Assembly: GCF_057098645.1 (NCBI RefSeq)
Contig: NZ_CM169472.1
DNA length: 64,000 nucleotides
Strand: one strand, 5' to 3'
Below, in pieces: positions 9,664 through 37,185 of this stretch. The first letter of the stretch is position 1. Each line of letters starts with the position of its first letter. The notes below the pieces were generated by a model that searched no databases, had not been told where the DNA came from, and worked only from the letters and a program-made list of their open reading frames with translations. The position numbers and the translations under genes are program-made.

Positions 9664-11214
9664 ATGCAACGTCGTGATTTCTTGAAATATTCCGTCGCAC
9701 TGGGTGTGGCTTCAGCCTTGCCACTGTGGAGCCGTGCAGTCTTTGCGGCGGAACGCCCAACGTTACCGATCCCTGATTTGCTCACGACCGATGCCCGTAA
9801 TCGCATTCAGTTAACTATTGGCGCAGGTCAGTCTACCTTTGGCGAGAAAACTGCAACTACCTGGGGCTATAACGGCAATCTGCTGGGGCCGGCGGTGAAA
9901 TTACAGCGCGGCAAAGCGGTAACGGTTGATATCTATAACCAACTGACGGAAGAGACGACGTTGCACTGGCACGGGCTGGAAGTACCGGGTGAAGTCGACG
10001 GCGGCCCACAGGGAATTATTCCGCCAGGTGGCAAGCGCTCGGTGACGTTGAACGTTGATCAACCTGCCGCTACCTGCTGGTTCCATCCACATCAACATGG
10101 CAAGACCGGGCGACAGGTGGCGATGGGGCTGGCTGGTCTGGTGGTGATTGAAGATGACGAGATCCTGAAATTAATGCTGCCAAAACAGTGGGGTATCGAT
10201 GATGTTCCGGTGATCGTTCAGGATAAGAAATTTAACGCCGACGGGCAGATTGATTATCAACTGGATGTGATGACCGCCGCCGTGGGCTGGTTTGGCGATA
10301 CGTTGCTGACCAACGGTGCAATCTACCCGCAACACGCTGCCCCGCGTGGTTGGCTGCGCCTGCGTTTGCTCAATGGCTGTAATGCCCGCTCGCTCAATTT
10401 CGCCACCAGCGACAATCGCCCGCTTTATGTGATTGCCAGCGACGGTGGTCTGCTACCTGAACCGGTGAAGGTGAACGAGCTGCCGGTGCTGATGGGCGAG
10501 CGTTTTGAAGTGCTGGTGGAGGTTAACGACAACAAACCCTTTGACCTGGTGACGCTGCCGGTCAGCCAGATGGGGATGGCGATTGCGCCGTTTGACAAGC
10601 CGCATCCGGTAATGCGGATTCAGCCGATTGCTATTAGTGCCTCCGGTGCTTTGCCAGACACATTAAGTAGCCTGCCTGCGTTACCTTCGCTGGAAGGGCT
10701 GACGGTACGCAAGCTGCAACTTTCTATGGACCCGATGCTCGATATGATGGGGATGCAGATGCTAATGGAGAAATATGGCGATCAGGCGATGGCCGGAATG
10801 GATCACAGCCAGATGATGGGCCATATGGGGCACGGCAATATGAATCATATGAACCACGGCGGGAAGTTCGATTTCCACCATGCCAATAAAATCAACGGTC
10901 AGGCGTTTGATATGAATAAGCCGATGTTTGCGGCGGCGAAAGGGCAGTACGAACGTTGGGTTATCTCTGGCGTGGGCGACATGATGCTGCATCCGTTCCA
11001 TATTCACGGCACGCAGTTCCGTATCTTGTCAGAAAATGGCAAACCGCCAGCGGCTCATCGCGCGGGCTGGAAAGATACCGTTAAGGTAGAGGGTAATGTC
11101 AGCGAAGTGCTGGTGAAGTTTAATCACGATGCACCGAAAGAACATGCTTATATGGCGCACTGCCATCTGCTGGAGCATGAAGATACGGGGATGATGTTAG
11201 GGTTTACGGTATAA
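9664..11214 (+). CDS. cueO: Multicopper oxidase CueO (periplasmic cuprous oxidase), Tat-exported
   Basis: ORF 9625..11214; start at the ATG at 9664 ([28 protein letters not shown], twin-arginine signal) gives 516 aa; HWHG and HCHLLEHED copper-site motifs and a Met-rich insert ([46 protein letters not shown]) are present. Confidence 0.96.
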
Positions 11215-11269
11215 AAAGACCGTATTCGGAAATATGCCCGGATCTCTCCGGGCATTAAACTGATGACAA

Positions 11270-11385
11270 ACGCAAATCTGCCTGATGCGCTACGCTTATC
11301 AGGCCTACGCTACCTGTGCAATCCATTGATTTTGCACAATTTTGTAGGCTGGATAAGGCGTTCGCGCCGCATCCGGCATGAACAA
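11270..11385. repeat. REP pair with central IHF site (BIME/RIP-type element)
   Basis: Two REP-like units in inverted orientation, gcctgatgcgctacgcttatcaggcctac and gtaggctggataaggcgttcgcgccgcatccggca, flank a sequence whose reverse complement (aatcaatggattg) fits the IHF consensus WATCAAnnnnTTR. Confidence 0.7.
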
Positions 11386-11415
11386 CGCGCACGTTGTCAG
11401 CAATCTGAGCAAGTC

Positions 11416-13806
11416 TTACTTCACATCATCCGGCAGCGCATAAGCCACAATATAGTCGCCCATCTTCGTACCAAATGAACCGTGACCGCCTGCGGAGATC
11501 ACCACATACTGCTTACCATTCACTTCATAGGTCATTGGCGTCGCCTGACCACCCGCTGGTAAACGACCCTGCCACAGTTTTTCACCGTTGCTCATGTTGT
11601 AAGCGCGCAGGTAGTTATCTGCCGTAGCGGCGATAAACAGCACGTTACCCGCCGTGGAGATTGGCCCGCCCAGCATCGGCATACCCATATTGAACGGCAC
11701 CGGTACAGGCATCGGGAACGGCATACTGTCCTGCGGCGTACCAATACGTTTCTTCCACACCACTTCATTAGTTTTCAGATCCAGCGCCGAGATATAACCC
11801 CATGCTGGCTGTTTACATGGCAGACCAAATGGTGAGAGGAACGGGTTGAGCGTGACACCATACGGTACACCGTACTGTGGCTGAATGCCGGATTCCGTAC
11901 CCGTGCCTTTGGCATCTTTCGGCTGCTCCATCGGGTTACCAGGACCGCGAGGGATCAGTTTCGAAACAAACGGCAGTGCCATTGGGTTGGCAATCGCCAC
12001 TTCACGATTTGGATCAACGGAAATCCCGCCCCATTCAAACATCCCCAGGTTACCCGGGAAGACCAGCGTGCCCTGTTCAGATGGCGGCGTGAAAATGCCT
12101 TCATAGCGCATCTGGTGGAACATCACGCGGCACACCAGTTGGTCAAACATGGTGGCTCCCCACATATCCGCACCGCTCAAATCTTTCGTCGGACGGAAGC
12201 TCAGTTCCGAGAATGGTTGAGTAGGGGTAACGTAATCGCCTTTGGCAGCACCTTGGGGAACCGGTTTTTCCGGTGCCGGAACCACCAGTTCGCCATTACG
12301 ACGATCGAGCACAAAAATGTTGCCGGTTTTCGCCGGAGCGTAAATAACTGGCACTTTCTGACCATTAACGGTGATGTCCGCCAGCGTCGGCTGTGCCGGA
12401 AGATCCATATCCCACAGGTCGTGGTGAACGGTCTGGTAGCTCCACGCCAATTTCCCGGTTGTGGCATTCAGCGCCAGAATCGAGCTGGCATAACGTTCCT
12501 GTTCCGGTGTGCGGTTACCGCCCCAGATATCCGGCGTGGTCACGCCTATCGGCAGATACACCAGATCCAGCTTCGCGTCATAGGCCGCTGGTGCCCACGA
12601 GTTTGGCGAGTTAAAGGTAAAGGTGTGTTCGTCAGACGGGATTGCGTTCGGATCTTTCGCGCCGGGATCAAAAGCCCACAGCAGCTCCCCGGTGTTGACA
12701 TCAAAACCACGGATCACGCCAGACGTTTCGCGGGTTGAGAAGTTATCGGTAACTGAACCGGCCATCACGATGGTTTTATCGGTGATAATCGGTGGCGAAG
12801 TCGGTTCATACAGACCCGGTTTGGTGTCTGGCATATTGCTTTGCAGATTGAGCACGCCTTTATTGGCGAAGGTTTCGCACAGTTTGCCGTTTTCAGCGTT
12901 AATCGCAATCAGTCGACCATCATTGACCGGAAGAATGATACGACGCGGGCAATCCGCCATCACTTCCGGCGAAGCCGTTTCTGCTTTGGCTTCATGATAA
13001 GAGACGCCACGGCAGGTTACGTGCTGGAAAGACTCGTTAGTTTTCAGCTCAGGATCGTAATGCCATTTCTCTTTGCCGCTGGCGGCATCGAGCGCAAACA
13101 GGCGCTGGTGAGCGGTACACAGGTAAAGGGTGTCGCCCACTTTAATCGGCGTCACTTCATTGGTGATTTCGCCCGGATCGTTCGGCTGCTTCACATCGCC
13201 AGTACGGAACACCCAGGCTTCTTTCAGATTATGGACGTTATCGGCGTTAATTTGTTTCAGAGGTGAAAAGCGTTGACCTTCCTGATTGCGACCATAGGCA
13301 GGCCAGTCCTGATCGGCAACGGGTGAGATAGCTTCCGCAGGTGTGGCATCGGCGCTTAAGGTACCGTTGATTTCCTGCGGATCGTTAAATCCGGCCCAGG
13401 TCAGGATACCACCGCTAATCAGCAGTGCGACCACCAGTGCGGCAACTGCGCCGCTGGCAGGAATGACCAGGCGACGCCAGACAAACGGCAGGATCAGCCA
13501 GATGCCGAAGAAGACCAGAATATCGCTGCGCGGAGTCAGCGCCCAGAAGTCGAAACCAACTTCCCAGACGCCCCAAATCATGGTGCCGAGCAGCAGGGCG
13601 GCGTATAGCCAAAGCGCGGCACGTTTACTGCGCCACAGCATCCAGGCGACGCCGAGCATCACAAGGCCAGCGATAGGGTAGTACCAGGAGCCGCCAATCG
13701 CGACTAGCCAGCCTCCGCCAATGAGTAGATACAGCCCGCAAAGCGCTGCAAAAAGGGCTGTTAGCGTGACGAGTAATCGTCGCGAGCCTGTATTGTTAAT
13801 TGCCAT
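11416..13806 (-). CDS. gcd: Quinoprotein (PQQ-dependent) glucose dehydrogenase, membrane-bound
   Basis: ORF 11416..13824; start refined to the ATG at 13806 (MAINNTGSRRLLVTLTALFAALCGLYLL...), giving 796 aa with N-terminal transmembrane helices and a PQQ beta-propeller domain. Confidence 0.95.
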   Translation of the reverse strand: MAINNTGSRRLLVTLTALFAALCGLYLLIGGGWLVAIGGSWYYPIAGLVMLGVAWMLWRSKRAALWLYAALLLGTMIWGVWEVGFDFWALTPRSDILVFFGIWLILPFVWRRLVIPASGAVAALVVALLISGGILTWAGFNDPQEINGTLSADATPAEAISPVADQDWPAYGRNQEGQRFSPLKQINADNVHNLKEAWVFRTGDVKQPNDPGEITNEVTPIKVGDTLYLCTAHQRLFALDAASGKEKWHYDPELKTNESFQHVTCRGVSYHEAKAETASPEVMADCPRRIILPVNDGRLIAINAENGKLCETFANKGVLNLQSNMPDTKPGLYEPTSPPIITDKTIVMAGSVTDNFSTRETSGVIRGFDVNTGELLWAFDPGAKDPNAIPSDEHTFTFNSPNSWAPAAYDAKLDLVYLPIGVTTPDIWGGNRTPEQERYASSILALNATTGKLAWSYQTVHHDLWDMDLPAQPTLADITVNGQKVPVIYAPAKTGNIFVLDRRNGELVVPAPEKPVPQGAAKGDYVTPTQPFSELSFRPTKDLSGADMWGATMFDQLVCRVMFHQMRYEGIFTPPSEQGTLVFPGNLGMFEWGGISVDPNREVAIANPMALPFVSKLIPRGPGNPMEQPKDAKGTGTESGIQPQYGVPYGVTLNPFLSPFGLPCKQPAWGYISALDLKTNEVVWKKRIGTPQDSMPFPMPVPVPFNMGMPMLGGPISTAGNVLFIAATADNYLRAYNMSNGEKLWQGRLPAGGQATPMTYEVNGKQYVVISAGGHGSFGTKMGDYIVAYALPDDVK

Positions 13807-14011: not shown

Positions 14012-14548
14012 ATGAAACATACTGTAGAAGTAATGATCCCCGAAGCGGAGATTAAAGCGCGTATCGCCGAACTGGGTCGTCAGATTACTGAGCGTTACAA
14101 AGACAGCGGCAGCGATATGGTGCTGGTGGGTCTGCTGCGTGGCTCATTTATGTTTATGGCGGACCTGTGCCGTGAAGTTCAGGTATCTCATGAAGTCGAC
14201 TTTATGACCGCCTCCAGCTACGGTAGCGGCATGTCCACCACCCGTGATGTGAAAATCCTCAAAGATCTGGATGAAGATATCCGTGGCAAGGACGTGCTGA
14301 TTGTTGAAGATATCATCGACTCGGGGAATACACTGTCGAAAGTGCGTGAGATCTTAAGCCTGCGCGAACCGAAGTCGTTGGCGATTTGTACGCTGCTGGA
14401 TAAACCGTCCCGTCGTGAAGTGAACGTCCCGGTAGAATTTATCGGTTTCTCGATCCCGGATGAGTTTGTGGTGGGTTACGGTATTGATTACGCACAGCGT
14501 TATCGTCATCTGCCGTATATCGGCAAAGTGATTCTGCTGGACGAGTAA
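14012..14548 (+). CDS. hpt: Hypoxanthine phosphoribosyltransferase
   Basis: ORF 13937..14548; [29 protein letters not shown]... from the ATG at 14012 gives 178 aa; an alternative in-frame ATG at 14000 (MVRDMKHT, 182 aa) cannot be excluded; PRPP-binding motif [13 protein letters not shown] is present. Confidence 0.92.
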
Positions 14549-14556
14549 GTGTGAAG

Positions 14557-14588
14557 TTGCCGGATGTGTTGCATCCGGCATGGCATTT
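14557..14588. terminator. Bidirectional rho-independent terminator between hpt and can
   Basis: Hairpin TTGCCGGATGtgttgCATCCGGCA followed by tggcatttttatttg between convergent genes. Confidence 0.7.
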
Positions 14589-15251
14589 TTATTTGTGGTT
14601 GGCGTGTTTCAGCTTGAGGTTGGAAATCCCATGACGGTAACGTTGCTCAAGGGTTTCGCGGTTGGTGGCAGTAACATCCAGATCACGCAGCAAGCCGTCG
14701 TGAATGCCATAGGCCCAGCCGTGAATGGTAACTTTCTGCCCGCGTTTCCACGCTGATTGCATAATGGTGGAGTGGCCCAGGTTATACACCTGTTCCATGA
14801 CGTTCAGTTCACACAAGGTATCCAGACGGCGCTCTTGCGGCATTTCGCCGAGCAATGAGCTATGTTTGAACCAGATATCGCGGATATGCAGCAGCCAGTT
14901 GTTGATAAGCCCCAGTTCCGGGTTTTCAACTGCGGCTTGTACGCCGCCGCAACCGTAGTGGCCACAGATAATAATGTGTTCAACTTCGAGTACATCCACT
15001 GCATACTGAACCACGGAAAGGCAGTTCAGGTCGGTGTGAATGACCAGGTTAGCAACATTACGGTGAACAAAGAGTTCGCCCGGCTCAAGACCGGTTAAAC
15101 GTTCTGCAGGAACGCGACTGTCGGAACATCCAATCCATAGAAAGCGCGGTTTTTGCGCTTGTGCCAGTTTCTCAAAAAACCCGGGATCCTCTTCCACCAG
15201 CATTTTTGACCATAGTGCATTGTTGCTGATGAGTGTATCTATGTCTTTCAT
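14589..15251 (-). CDS. can: Beta-class carbonic anhydrase 2
   Basis: 220-aa [50 protein letters not shown]...; beta-CA zinc ligands (CSDSR, HxxCG) are present. Confidence 0.95.
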
Positions 15252-34755: not shown

Positions 34756-37185
34756 GTGTCGTCGTTGCCCGTTGCTGCCGTCTTACCTGAATTACTTACC
34801 GCTCTCGATTGTGCGCCGCAGGTATTATTAAGTGCGCCGACCGGGGCCGGGAAATCAACCTGGCTGCCGCTGCAACTGCTGGCGCATCCCGGCATTAACG
34901 GGAAAATTATCCTGCTGGAGCCGCGTCGTCTGGCGGCGCGTAACGTCGCGCAACGGCTGGCGGAGCTGCTTAACGAAAAGCCAGGCGATACCGTTGGCTA
35001 CCGGATGCGTGCGCAAAACTGCGTCGGGCCGAATACCCGCCTGGAAGTAGTTACCGAAGGCGTGCTGACGCGGATGATCCAGCGTGACCCGGAACTGAGC
35101 GGTGTTGGATTGGTGATCCTTGATGAATTTCATGAGCGTAGCTTGCAGGCGGATTTGGCGTTTGCGCTGTTACTCGATGTGCAACAAGGTCTGCGTGATG
35201 ACCTTAAACTGCTGATTATGTCGGCTACGCTGGACAACGACCGCTTGCAGCAAATGCTGCCAGAAGCGCCCGTCGTCATCTCAGAAGGGCGCTCGTTTCC
35301 GGTTGAACGCCGTTATTTACCGCTGCCCACGCATCAGCGTTTTGACGATGCCGTTGCGGTAGCCACCGCTGAAATGCTGCGTCAGGAAAGCGGATCATTA
35401 CTGTTATTTTTACCTGGCGTCGGAGAAATTCAGCGTGTGCAGGAACAACTGGCTTCGCGCATCGGCAGTGATGTATTGCTCTGCCCGCTGTATGGCGCGT
35501 TGTCGCTGAACGATCAGCGAAAAGCGATCCTCCCGGCACCGCAAGGGATGCGCAAAGTGGTGCTGGCGACCAATATTGCTGAAACCAGTTTAACCATCGA
35601 AGGTATTCGTCTGGTGGTGGATTGTGCCCAGGAGCGTGTGGCGCGTTTTGATCCGCGCACGGGGCTTACGCGACTGATTACTCAACGCGTTAGCCAGGCA
35701 TCCATGACGCAGCGTGCCGGGCGCGCCGGGCGTCTGGAGCCGGGTATCTGCCTGCATTTAATCGCCAAAGAACAAGCAGAACGCGCTGCCGCGCAAAGTG
35801 AACCGGAGATCTTACAAAATGATCTTTCCGGTTTGCTGATGGAATTACTGCAATGGGGATGCAGCGATCTGGCGCAGATGAGCTGGCTGGATCAACCGCC
35901 AGCAGTGAATTTACTGGCCGCGAAACGCCTGTTAAAGATGCTGGGGGCGCTGGACGGTGAACGGCTTAGTGCGCAGGGGCAAAAAATGGCAGCGCTGGGT
36001 AACGATCCGCGTTTAGCGGCAATGCTGGTTAGCGCAAAGAGCGACGACGAAGCTGCTACCGCGGCAAAAATTGCCGCCATTCTCGAAGAGCCCCCACGGA
36101 TGGGCAATAGTGACCTGGGCGTGGTGTTTTCGCGCAATCAACCAGCCTGGCAGCAACGTAGTCAGCAACTGTTAAAAAGCTTAAACGTACGCGGCGGTGA
36201 GGCAGACAGTTCGCTTATCGTGCCGCTACTTGCCGGGGCTTTTGCCGATCGCATTGCTCGCCGCCGTGGGCAAGATGGTCGCTATCAACTGGCGAACGGC
36301 ATGGGAGCGATGCTCGATGCCGATGACGCGCTAAGCCGCCACGAATGGTTGATCGCACCGTTATTATTGCAGGGCAGCGCCTCGCCGGATGCGCGGATTT
36401 TACTGGCGCTACCGGTCGATATTGATGAATTAGTGCGACGCTGTCCGCAGCTGGTGCAGCAATCTGACACCGTGGAATGGGATGACGCGCAAGGTACACT
36501 GAAAGCCTGGCGTCGGCTGCAAATCGGTCAGTTGGCGGTGAAAGTGCAGCCACTGGCGAAACCGTCAGAAGACGAGTTGCATCAGGCGATGCTTAACGGC
36601 ATCCGTGATAAAGGTTTAAGCGTGCTCAACTGGACGGCGGAAGCGGAACAGCTACGCTTGCGTTTGTTATGCGCCGGAAAGTGGTTGCCAGAATATGACT
36701 GGCCAGCGGTTGATGATGAAAGTTTGTTGGCGACGCTGGAAACGTGGCTGCTGCCACATATGGCCGGTGTACATTCACTACGCGGCCTGAAATCACTCGA
36801 CATTTATCAGGCACTACGCGGATTACTTGATTGGGGAATGCAGCAACGTCTGGATAGTGAATTGCCTGCGCATTACACTGTGCCGACGGGAAGCCGGATC
36901 GCCATTCGTTATCATGAAGATAACCCGCCCGCGCTGGCGGTGAGAATGCAGGAGATGTTTGGTGAGGCCACTAATCCGACGATCGCCCAGGGGCGCGTGC
37001 CGCTGGTGCTGGAATTGCTTTCACCTGCCCAAAGGCCGCTGCAAATCACGCGTGATTTGGGGGCCTTCTGGAAAGGGGCGTATCGTGAGGTGCAAAAAGA
37101 GATGAAAGGGCGTTATCCCAAACACGTCTGGCCGGACGACCCGGCAAACACGGCACCGACGCGACGGACGAAAAAGTATTCGTAA
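34756..37185 (+). CDS. hrpB: ATP-dependent RNA helicase HrpB (DEAH-box)
   Basis: ORF 34711..37185; start refined to the GTG at 34756 (MSSLPVAAVLPELLTALDCAPQVLLSAPTGAGKST...), 809 aa; Walker A GAGKST and DEFH box are present; GGAG Shine-Dalgarno upstream. Confidence 0.9.
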   Translation: MSSLPVAAVLPELLTALDCAPQVLLSAPTGAGKSTWLPLQLLAHPGINGKIILLEPRRLAARNVAQRLAELLNEKPGDTVGYRMRAQNCVGPNTRLEVVTEGVLTRMIQRDPELSGVGLVILDEFHERSLQADLAFALLLDVQQGLRDDLKLLIMSATLDNDRLQQMLPEAPVVISEGRSFPVERRYLPLPTHQRFDDAVAVATAEMLRQESGSLLLFLPGVGEIQRVQEQLASRIGSDVLLCPLYGALSLNDQRKAILPAPQGMRKVVLATNIAETSLTIEGIRLVVDCAQERVARFDPRTGLTRLITQRVSQASMTQRAGRAGRLEPGICLHLIAKEQAERAAAQSEPEILQNDLSGLLMELLQWGCSDLAQMSWLDQPPAVNLLAAKRLLKMLGALDGERLSAQGQKMAALGNDPRLAAMLVSAKSDDEAATAAKIAAILEEPPRMGNSDLGVVFSRNQPAWQQRSQQLLKSLNVRGGEADSSLIVPLLAGAFADRIARRRGQDGRYQLANGMGAMLDADDALSRHEWLIAPLLLQGSASPDARILLALPVDIDELVRRCPQLVQQSDTVEWDDAQGTLKAWRRLQIGQLAVKVQPLAKPSEDELHQAMLNGIRDKGLSVLNWTAEAEQLRLRLLCAGKWLPEYDWPAVDDESLLATLETWLLPHMAGVHSLRGLKSLDIYQALRGLLDWGMQQRLDSELPAHYTVPTGSRIAIRYHEDNPPALAVRMQEMFGEATNPTIAQGRVPLVLELLSPAQRPLQITRDLGAFWKGAYREVQKEMKGRYPKHVWPDDPANTAPTRRTKKYS

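Follow-up and report, generated by a model that had tools for sequence, protein, structure and literature searches.

A BIME-1 repeat copy in the spacer between cueO and gcd of Escherichia coli: composition, strain variation and candidate roles

On the sequence comparisons given below, the repeat element in the spacer between the convergent genes cueO and gcd is a BIME-1 (the same as RIP and RIB, and a REP doublet of the REPIN type) that is already known and catalogued. Taking the evidence together, we consider it very probable that this BIME-1 copy, with a linker that would be bent by IHF, lies inside the gcd 3' UTR and is a dispensable passenger there. Judged by its identity to database sequences, the window (the whole 64-kb stretch of DNA that was analysed) is E. 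coli DNA, as positions 11015-11615 match strains such as RM9872 with 100% identity and the cueO-gcd spacer of 201 bp matches that of CP53 with 100% and that of K-12 with 99% identity. The gene names and the convergent arrangement, cueO (+) and gcd (-), that an earlier note on this DNA had proposed are those of the annotation both in CP53, the DNA of which is identical, and in K-12.

Composition of the spacer and fold of the element

Read from cueO, the spacer contains in order a hairpin, a 22-nt flank, a y-type REP, a linker, a z1-type REP, a 31-nt flank and a further 6 nt before the gcd stop codon (Table 1). The two REPs do stand in inverted orientation, as had been noticed from the letters alone, the y REP reading as such on the plus strand and the z1 REP in reverse complement, with 35 nt between them. 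The y REP contains exact GCCTGATGCG and CTTATCAGGCCTAC cores and by itself forms a hairpin of -13.2 kcal/mol. The interval first assigned to the element, 11270-11385, was right in that it covers the REP pair and too narrow for the conserved repeat unit, which spans 11257-11409 (about 153 bp) and which, by alignment of the sibling copies, runs from (G/T)A(A/G)ACTGATGACAAACGC to CAGCAATCTGAG. In the window the element is present as a single y-L-z1 unit, extragenic and at the 3' ends of genes.

The predicted fold of the element is one long imperfect hairpin, in which the left flank pairs with the right flank (the two forming an inverted repeat), the y REP pairs with the z1 REP and the linker places the IHF word at the tip; the apex of the entire palindrome is formed by the linker's own small inverted repeat, TGTGCAA...TTGCACA. 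The right flank contains in addition a small hairpin of its own (ACAACG-cgca-CGTTGT, 11382-11397). As RNA, the whole spacer is predicted to fold with -77.6 kcal/mol on the plus strand (z = -5.5 vs shuffles) and -81.2 kcal/mol on the minus strand (z = -4.7 vs shuffles), and the element alone with -57.6 and -61.4 kcal/mol for the two strands, or -31.3 kcal/mol when folded as DNA. The GC-rich hairpin near the cueO end is outside the repeat, the left end of which adjoins the 3' foot of this hairpin.

Two open reading frames run across the repeat (11255-11392 on the minus strand, 45 codons, and 11263-11478 on the plus strand, 71 codons), both presumably spurious; elsewhere, a sibling repeat underlies an annotated 'YahH' protein in some records.

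Table 1. Features of the cueO-gcd region in window coordinates
Feature	Position	Strand	Basis or remark
cueO CDS, multicopper oxidase	9664..11214	+	annotation on 100% identical CP53 DNA, mapped by offset
Centre of Rho-dependent region, approximate	11023	- (gcd-sense)	mapped from K-12 138442 by offset
cueO stop codon TAA	11212-11214	+	C-terminal translation read
cueO-gcd spacer	11215-11415 (K-12 138634-138834)		201 bp between convergent stops
GC-rich hairpin ATGCCCGGA-tctc-TCCGGGCAT, 9-bp stem	11234..11255		inverted repeat; folds in both strands
Left conserved flank AAACTGATGACAAACGCAAATC	11257..11278	+	20/22 vs six-sibling consensus
y-type REP (palindromic unit) TGCCTGATGCGCTACGCTTATCAGGCCTAC	11279..11308	+	30/30 vs six-sibling consensus; exact cores
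L linker, 35 nt	11309..11343		24/35 identical to sibling consensus
IHF core consensus AATCAATGGATTG	11319..11331	-	13/13 match to WATCAANNNNTTR
z1-type REP, inverted; + strand = GTAGGCTGGATAAGGCGTTCGCGCCGCATCCGGCA	11344..11378	-	33/35 vs sibling consensus; minus-strand core matches
Right conserved flank TGAACAACGCGCACGTTGTCAGCAATCTGAG	11379..11409	+	30/32 vs sibling consensus
gcd stop codon	11416-11418	-	C-terminal translation ...YALPDDVK*
gcd CDS, quinoprotein glucose dehydrogenase	11416..13806	-	annotation mapped from CP53

Membership of the BIME-1 family and the IHF motif

Using six sibling copies from other loci (mog-satP, fdhE-yiiF, rhlE-ybiA, aspC-gloC, entD-fepA and pfkA-sbp), with the window itself left out, we built a profile HMM that matches 11258-11409 with E=6.1e-48, and comparison with the consensus, segment by segment, gave the identities listed in Table 1, from 24/35 in the linker to 30/30 in the y REP. 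The only other match of this profile in the window with E<1 is the element again, read on the opposite strand. Four of the six sibling loci are likewise between convergent genes. By megablast, related places were found in 5425 of 5426 complete E. coli genomes, with a median of 18 per genome, and the copies at other loci align to positions ~35-195 of the query, which correspond to window positions 11249-11409.

Searches with short REP words agree with this picture. The 14-mer REP foot CTTATCMGGCCTAC, with up to 2 mismatches allowed, occurs in the 64 kb at these two REPs only, both of which also contain the 10-mer GCCKGATGCG exactly, and no further REP or BIME was detectable in the window. Further REP-like matches to the 10-mer at 36384 and 43180 are in seemingly uninterrupted coding-like sequence and look like chance, and a match at 14559-14579 was rejected as a REP, being instead an ordinary hairpin with a T-run. 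This last structure, at 14559-14590 on the plus strand, consists of the hairpin GCCGGATG-tgtt-GCATCCGGC followed by ATGGCATTTTTATTT, comes after an ORF ending at 14548 and is terminator-like, with a stem that resembles the top of a REP. A long 37-nt REP consensus with Stern/z2-like spacing gave 0 matches in the window even with 3 mismatches, because its spacing is wrong for y and z1 units.

BIME-1 elements are defined as a y and a z1 REP in inverted orientation, present as a single unit and separated by a long conserved L linker that frequently contains an IHF site (Ton-Hoang et al. 2012; Nunvar et al. 2010), and BIME-2 elements as y and z2 REPs with short linkers, arranged in tandem arrays and forming a strong gyrase target (Ton-Hoang et al. 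2012; Nunvar et al. 2010; Sutormin et al. 2019). The BIME-1/RIP architecture put forward in the earlier note was found in all of its sequence-level features, and the K-12 ortholog is tabulated as a BIME-1: table DS3 of Sutormin et al. 2019 lists 'BIMEs1 138700-138797' in K-12, an interval equivalent to window positions 11281-11378. The second REP is labelled z1 and not z2 on the strength of two comparisons, with the siblings and with table DS3. With respect to BIME-1 (in the Bachellier/Gilson nomenclature), RIP (repetitive IHF-binding palindromic element; Oppenheim et al. 1993) and RIB (reiterative IHF BIME; Boccard and Prentki 1993), the cueO-gcd copy differs in nothing categorical. It resembles BIME-2 elements such as REP325/naRNA4 in the alternation of a y REP with a z-type REP and in a partial match to naRNA4, and differs from them by its long L linker with an IHF motif, its presence as a single unit and the lack of gyrase cleavage, which place it outside that class.

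The copy of NC_000913.3 that we examined carries CDS features only, in three regions holding or possibly holding REP elements. As it is without any repeat features, the missing annotation of a repeat between cueO and gcd is uninformative. The K-12 GenBank record presumably annotates such elements as 'RIP ... 2 REP sequences and 1 IHF site', and we take one such RIP annotation to be present in K-12 at 5.5 kb.

The IHF-consensus match that had been seen between the REPs is real and perfect (Table 1), and is the only exact match to this consensus in an intergenic position nearby. By itself, the IHF consensus is not significant in the window, where it has 4 matches vs 2.27 expected and where 18 of 100 shuffles reach 4. 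The motif carries weight because of its fixed place in the family, since it is found at an identical position and on the same strand in 8/8 aligned copies, within a linker core (TGCAAT..ATTGA.TTTGCAC..TTTT) that is conserved with the siblings. Compared with the BIME-1 consensus, the cueO-gcd linker departs at 11 of 35 positions, and these changes give a perfect IHF core in place of the 12/13 core (ATTCAAT...) of the siblings; its affinity may therefore differ from that of the members that have been tested. Other BIME-1 elements are known to bind IHF (Boccard and Prentki 1993; Oppenheim et al. 1993; both as cited by Ton-Hoang et al. 2012 and Nunvar et al. 2010), and by analogy binding to the cueO-gcd copy is plausible. 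As in other family members, the linker, placed at the palindrome's apex, would then bind IHF and the DNA would be bent, a bending that would require no effect on cueO or gcd.

Possible roles at the gcd and cueO 3' ends and alternative readings

Among 5426 complete E. coli genomes, 2376 (44%) have, with an exact junction, a short 46-bp spacer that consists of the hairpin and TATGG, and since the repeat is absent from these genomes neither cueO nor gcd needs it. A 601-bp query spanning the spacer was covered over at least 80% of its length in 2838 of the 5426 genomes, and most of the remaining genomes gave two pieces with 155 bp missing between them. The resident GC hairpin, by contrast with the repeat, is invariant in 7/7 aligned spacer alleles, including those without a repeat, and also in the species-level Escherichia genomes compared, including MOD1-EC7003. 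Being kept in all alleles, the hairpin is the part of the spacer that is conserved, with the BIME-1 as an optional passenger beside it. This hairpin is a candidate for 3' protection or for weak termination in both directions. A scan for promoter and terminator consensus over 11000-11650 found no promoter-like site and no intrinsic-terminator-like site in the spacer, the hairpin not being scored as terminator-like because its stem is not followed by a T-run on either strand.

On the minus strand, a region of Rho-dependent termination antisense to cueO has been reported in K-12, centred at 138442, with a Rho score of 3.44, a significance of 5.4e-6 and upstream/downstream reads of 57/18 in untreated cells vs 220/239 with bicyclomycin (Adams et al. 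2021, supplementary file 2). The resolution of this assignment is low (800-nt windows), and because the region is mapped to hundreds of nucleotides only, Rho could act at the element itself. In the Term-seq data of the same study no 3' end was called in K-12 1384xx-1389xx, under conditions in which the expression of cueO and gcd is weak (Adams et al. 2021). In the general model, Rho terminates transcription downstream of REPs and exonucleases then shorten the RNA as far as a stable stem (Dar and Sorek 2018). Applied to this locus, gcd transcription would pass through the element and the hairpin and would be stopped by Rho at a later point, antisense to cueO, and the hairpin and the long REP stem would then be barriers to 3'-to-5' exonucleases. 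Transcripts of cueO would reach the resident hairpin first and, since the hairpin precedes the element in this direction, would include the element only upon read-through.

A role of the element in RNA, if there is any, thus most plausibly concerns gcd, the element being within the gcd 3' UTR; it may have a mild influence on the gcd 3' end that depends on the allele. The stable stem in the 3' UTR and the Rho region downstream of it make the gcd strand similar to the REP stabilisers and Rho-dependent 3' ends described elsewhere (Newbury et al. 1987; Peters et al. 2012; Dar and Sorek 2018); unlike these systems, the cueO-gcd spacer offers a separate and more conserved hairpin for the same job. 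Control of translation by a REP goes with a distance of at most 15 nt between stop codon and REP, and this is not the arrangement here, where 64 nt lie between the cueO stop and the y REP, and 37 nt between the gcd stop and the z1 REP.

The suggestion that both genes use the element as the 3' end of their transcripts or as a stabiliser did not hold up well. A module selected as bidirectional terminator or mRNA stabiliser for cueO and gcd would fit its location between convergent stop codons, the strong folding of both strands and the documented action of REPs as mRNA stabilisers associated with transcript 3' ends (Ton-Hoang et al. 2012; Dar and Sorek 2018), but 44% of the complete E. coli genomes have the hairpin only, and in the cueO direction this conserved hairpin is met before the element. 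No T-run follows any stem and nothing in the spacer resembles an intrinsic terminator, the Rho-dependent region lies downstream on the gcd strand (Adams et al. 2021) and Term-seq placed no 3' end within the spacer. The RNA evidence together with the polymorphism between strains therefore makes a selected role for both genes unlikely. The possibility that the element is a gyrase site, or a topological insulator absorbing positive supercoils between the convergent genes, draws on reports that REPs bind gyrase and on the proposal that BIMEs are topological insulators (Sutormin et al. 2019; Ton-Hoang et al. 2012). Cleavage is, however, enriched in BIME-2 and not in BIME-1, and the orthologous interval 138700-138797 has 0 gyrase cleavage sites in K-12/W3110 in all four Topo-seq conditions, namely ciprofloxacin, rifampicin with ciprofloxacin, microcin B17 and oxolinic acid (Sutormin et al. 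2019). The gyrase binding that the earlier note had allowed for is thus a property of BIME-2 elements; the cueO-gcd copy is not a gyrase site, and the insulator reading is very improbable.

A small RNA encoded by the linker on the gcd-sense strand, independent of gcd and of the ES036/CssrF type, is an equally remote prospect. It would account for the Rfam match to ES036 (RF02751) at 11301-11343 (-), which extends over all 43 positions of the model with E ~1e-5, and it recalls CssrF, seen on a northern blot in Shigella, where it lies between dacB and yhbZ; the score of 34.6 bits is nevertheless below the gathering score of 37.6 and hence short of membership, 11000-11650 contains no promoter-like site, and degradation of the gcd 3' UTR would more simply account for such an RNA, as an intermediate of decay. 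As the ES036 match coincides with the repeated linker and the REP foot, it reflects membership of a DNA repeat, which suggests that RNA of a sibling BIME-1 (dacB-yhbZ), and not a distinct sRNA gene, underlies the ES036 family. A partial match to naRNA4, 32.1 vs a gathering score of 59.5, covers the z REP only, and these sub-threshold Rfam matches mirror the repeat. A chance palindrome enclosing a chance IHF-like word, with no repeat family behind it, would be in keeping with an IHF consensus that is not enriched in the window over shuffles, and can practically be dismissed in view of the match to the sibling profile (E=6e-48), the related sites in E. coli genomes, which run into thousands, and the existing catalogue entry (Sutormin et al. 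2019).

Alleles of the spacer and possible insertion beside hairpins

The preferred reading, a BIME-1 passenger in the gcd 3' UTR, agrees with the diversity of the spacer. In alignments to window positions 11175-11455 we found, besides the filled K-12-like allele, a filled allele with a canonical linker and 7 nt fewer before the core (strain N64), the short 46-bp allele with the hairpin and TATGG (JJ1886, APEC), an allele in which the hairpin is joined to the right flank, this flank alone being retained (strain NE88), and an allele with a tandem duplication of z1 and its flank (strain Z1323HEC0300). The sequence of the NE88 allele suggests a deletion by microhomology, with CCGGGCAT and CCGGCAT as its two ends, and not a transposase event. 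The 5 nt beside the gcd stop are TATGG in the empty allele and AAGTC in the filled one, so that neither allele can be derived cleanly from the other.

Using a degenerate pattern of the gcd C-terminus, 4 species-level genomes were retrieved. Among species-level Escherichia genomes, there is one diverged filled site, one short site and the amplified site of Escherichia sp. MOD1-EC7003, which has 8 tandem y-L-z1 units of 107 bp each, 96% matching (locus extract 2667-3524); filled and empty alleles are thus both present in divergent Escherichia lineages. Every unit of the MOD1-EC7003 array has an IHF-type linker, so that BIME-1-like units stand there in tandem although BIME-1 is defined as single-copy. 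In Pseudocitrobacter faecalis a different repeat is found downstream of gcd (locus extract 7720-7941), made of two CTCTCCCTGTGGGAGAGGG-type palindromes with G-rich tails, which is not a y/z REP.

We would see the element as a dispensable, occasionally mobile or deletable passenger and not as a regulator selected at cueO-gcd. Presence/absence polymorphism of whole BIME-1 elements was reportedly described by Bachellier et al. in 1997. Spread would probably have involved the REP-associated Y1 transposase (RAYT/TnpA-REP) and recombination. The REP types of this family are among the in vitro substrates of the E. coli TnpA-REP, which acts on y, z1 and z2 REPs by cleavage and recombination (Ton-Hoang et al. 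2012). Like REPINs, the element consists of two inverted REPs and a spacer that fold into one long hairpin and varies in presence and copy number between strains; a difference from the REPIN/RAYT system is that the 64-kb window contains no RAYT gene.

At 4/7 loci, including cueO-gcd, the left end of the element adjoins the 3' foot of a resident GC hairpin. For two of the loci, pairs of empty and filled sites were found (locus-extract spans 370-640 vs 4655-4780 for mog-satP, and 340-620 vs 121-231 for aspC-gloC). The empty mog-satP site of K-12 has one hairpin, ATCCCCCCGAGCGGGGGGAT, and the filled site of MS10711 has the hairpin, the BIME-1 and then a second, degenerate copy of the hairpin. At aspC-gloC, the empty site (ST131, O157) is a canonical terminator, GCCCGC-tgaaaa-GCGGGC with a T-run, and in filled strains the element lies between stem and T-run, the stem being duplicated. 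The duplicated hairpin, about 18-20 bp, is present whole on both sides of the element at these two loci, a feature by which they differ from the cueO-gcd copy, which is without a duplicated hairpin on its right side. A general rule by which BIME-1/RIP elements integrate at the 3' foot of terminator-type hairpins and duplicate them, perhaps not described before, is suggested by these cases and seems to us rather doubtful.

For the window itself the element has little significance, being a textbook repeat that was already listed at the K-12 position; what has become clearer is that the repeat is dispensable for cueO and gcd, that it is no gyrase site and that the small hairpin is the conserved feature of the spacer. 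The adjacency to hairpins and their duplication, together with the many alleles, may be of modest interest for the choice of insertion sites by REP doublets, unless this is found in older literature. If the rule were true, it would mean structure-targeted integration of REPIN-type elements, and cueO-gcd, where five or more alleles and an array of 8 units occur, would be a hotspot that could retune the processing of the gcd 3' UTR between lineages.
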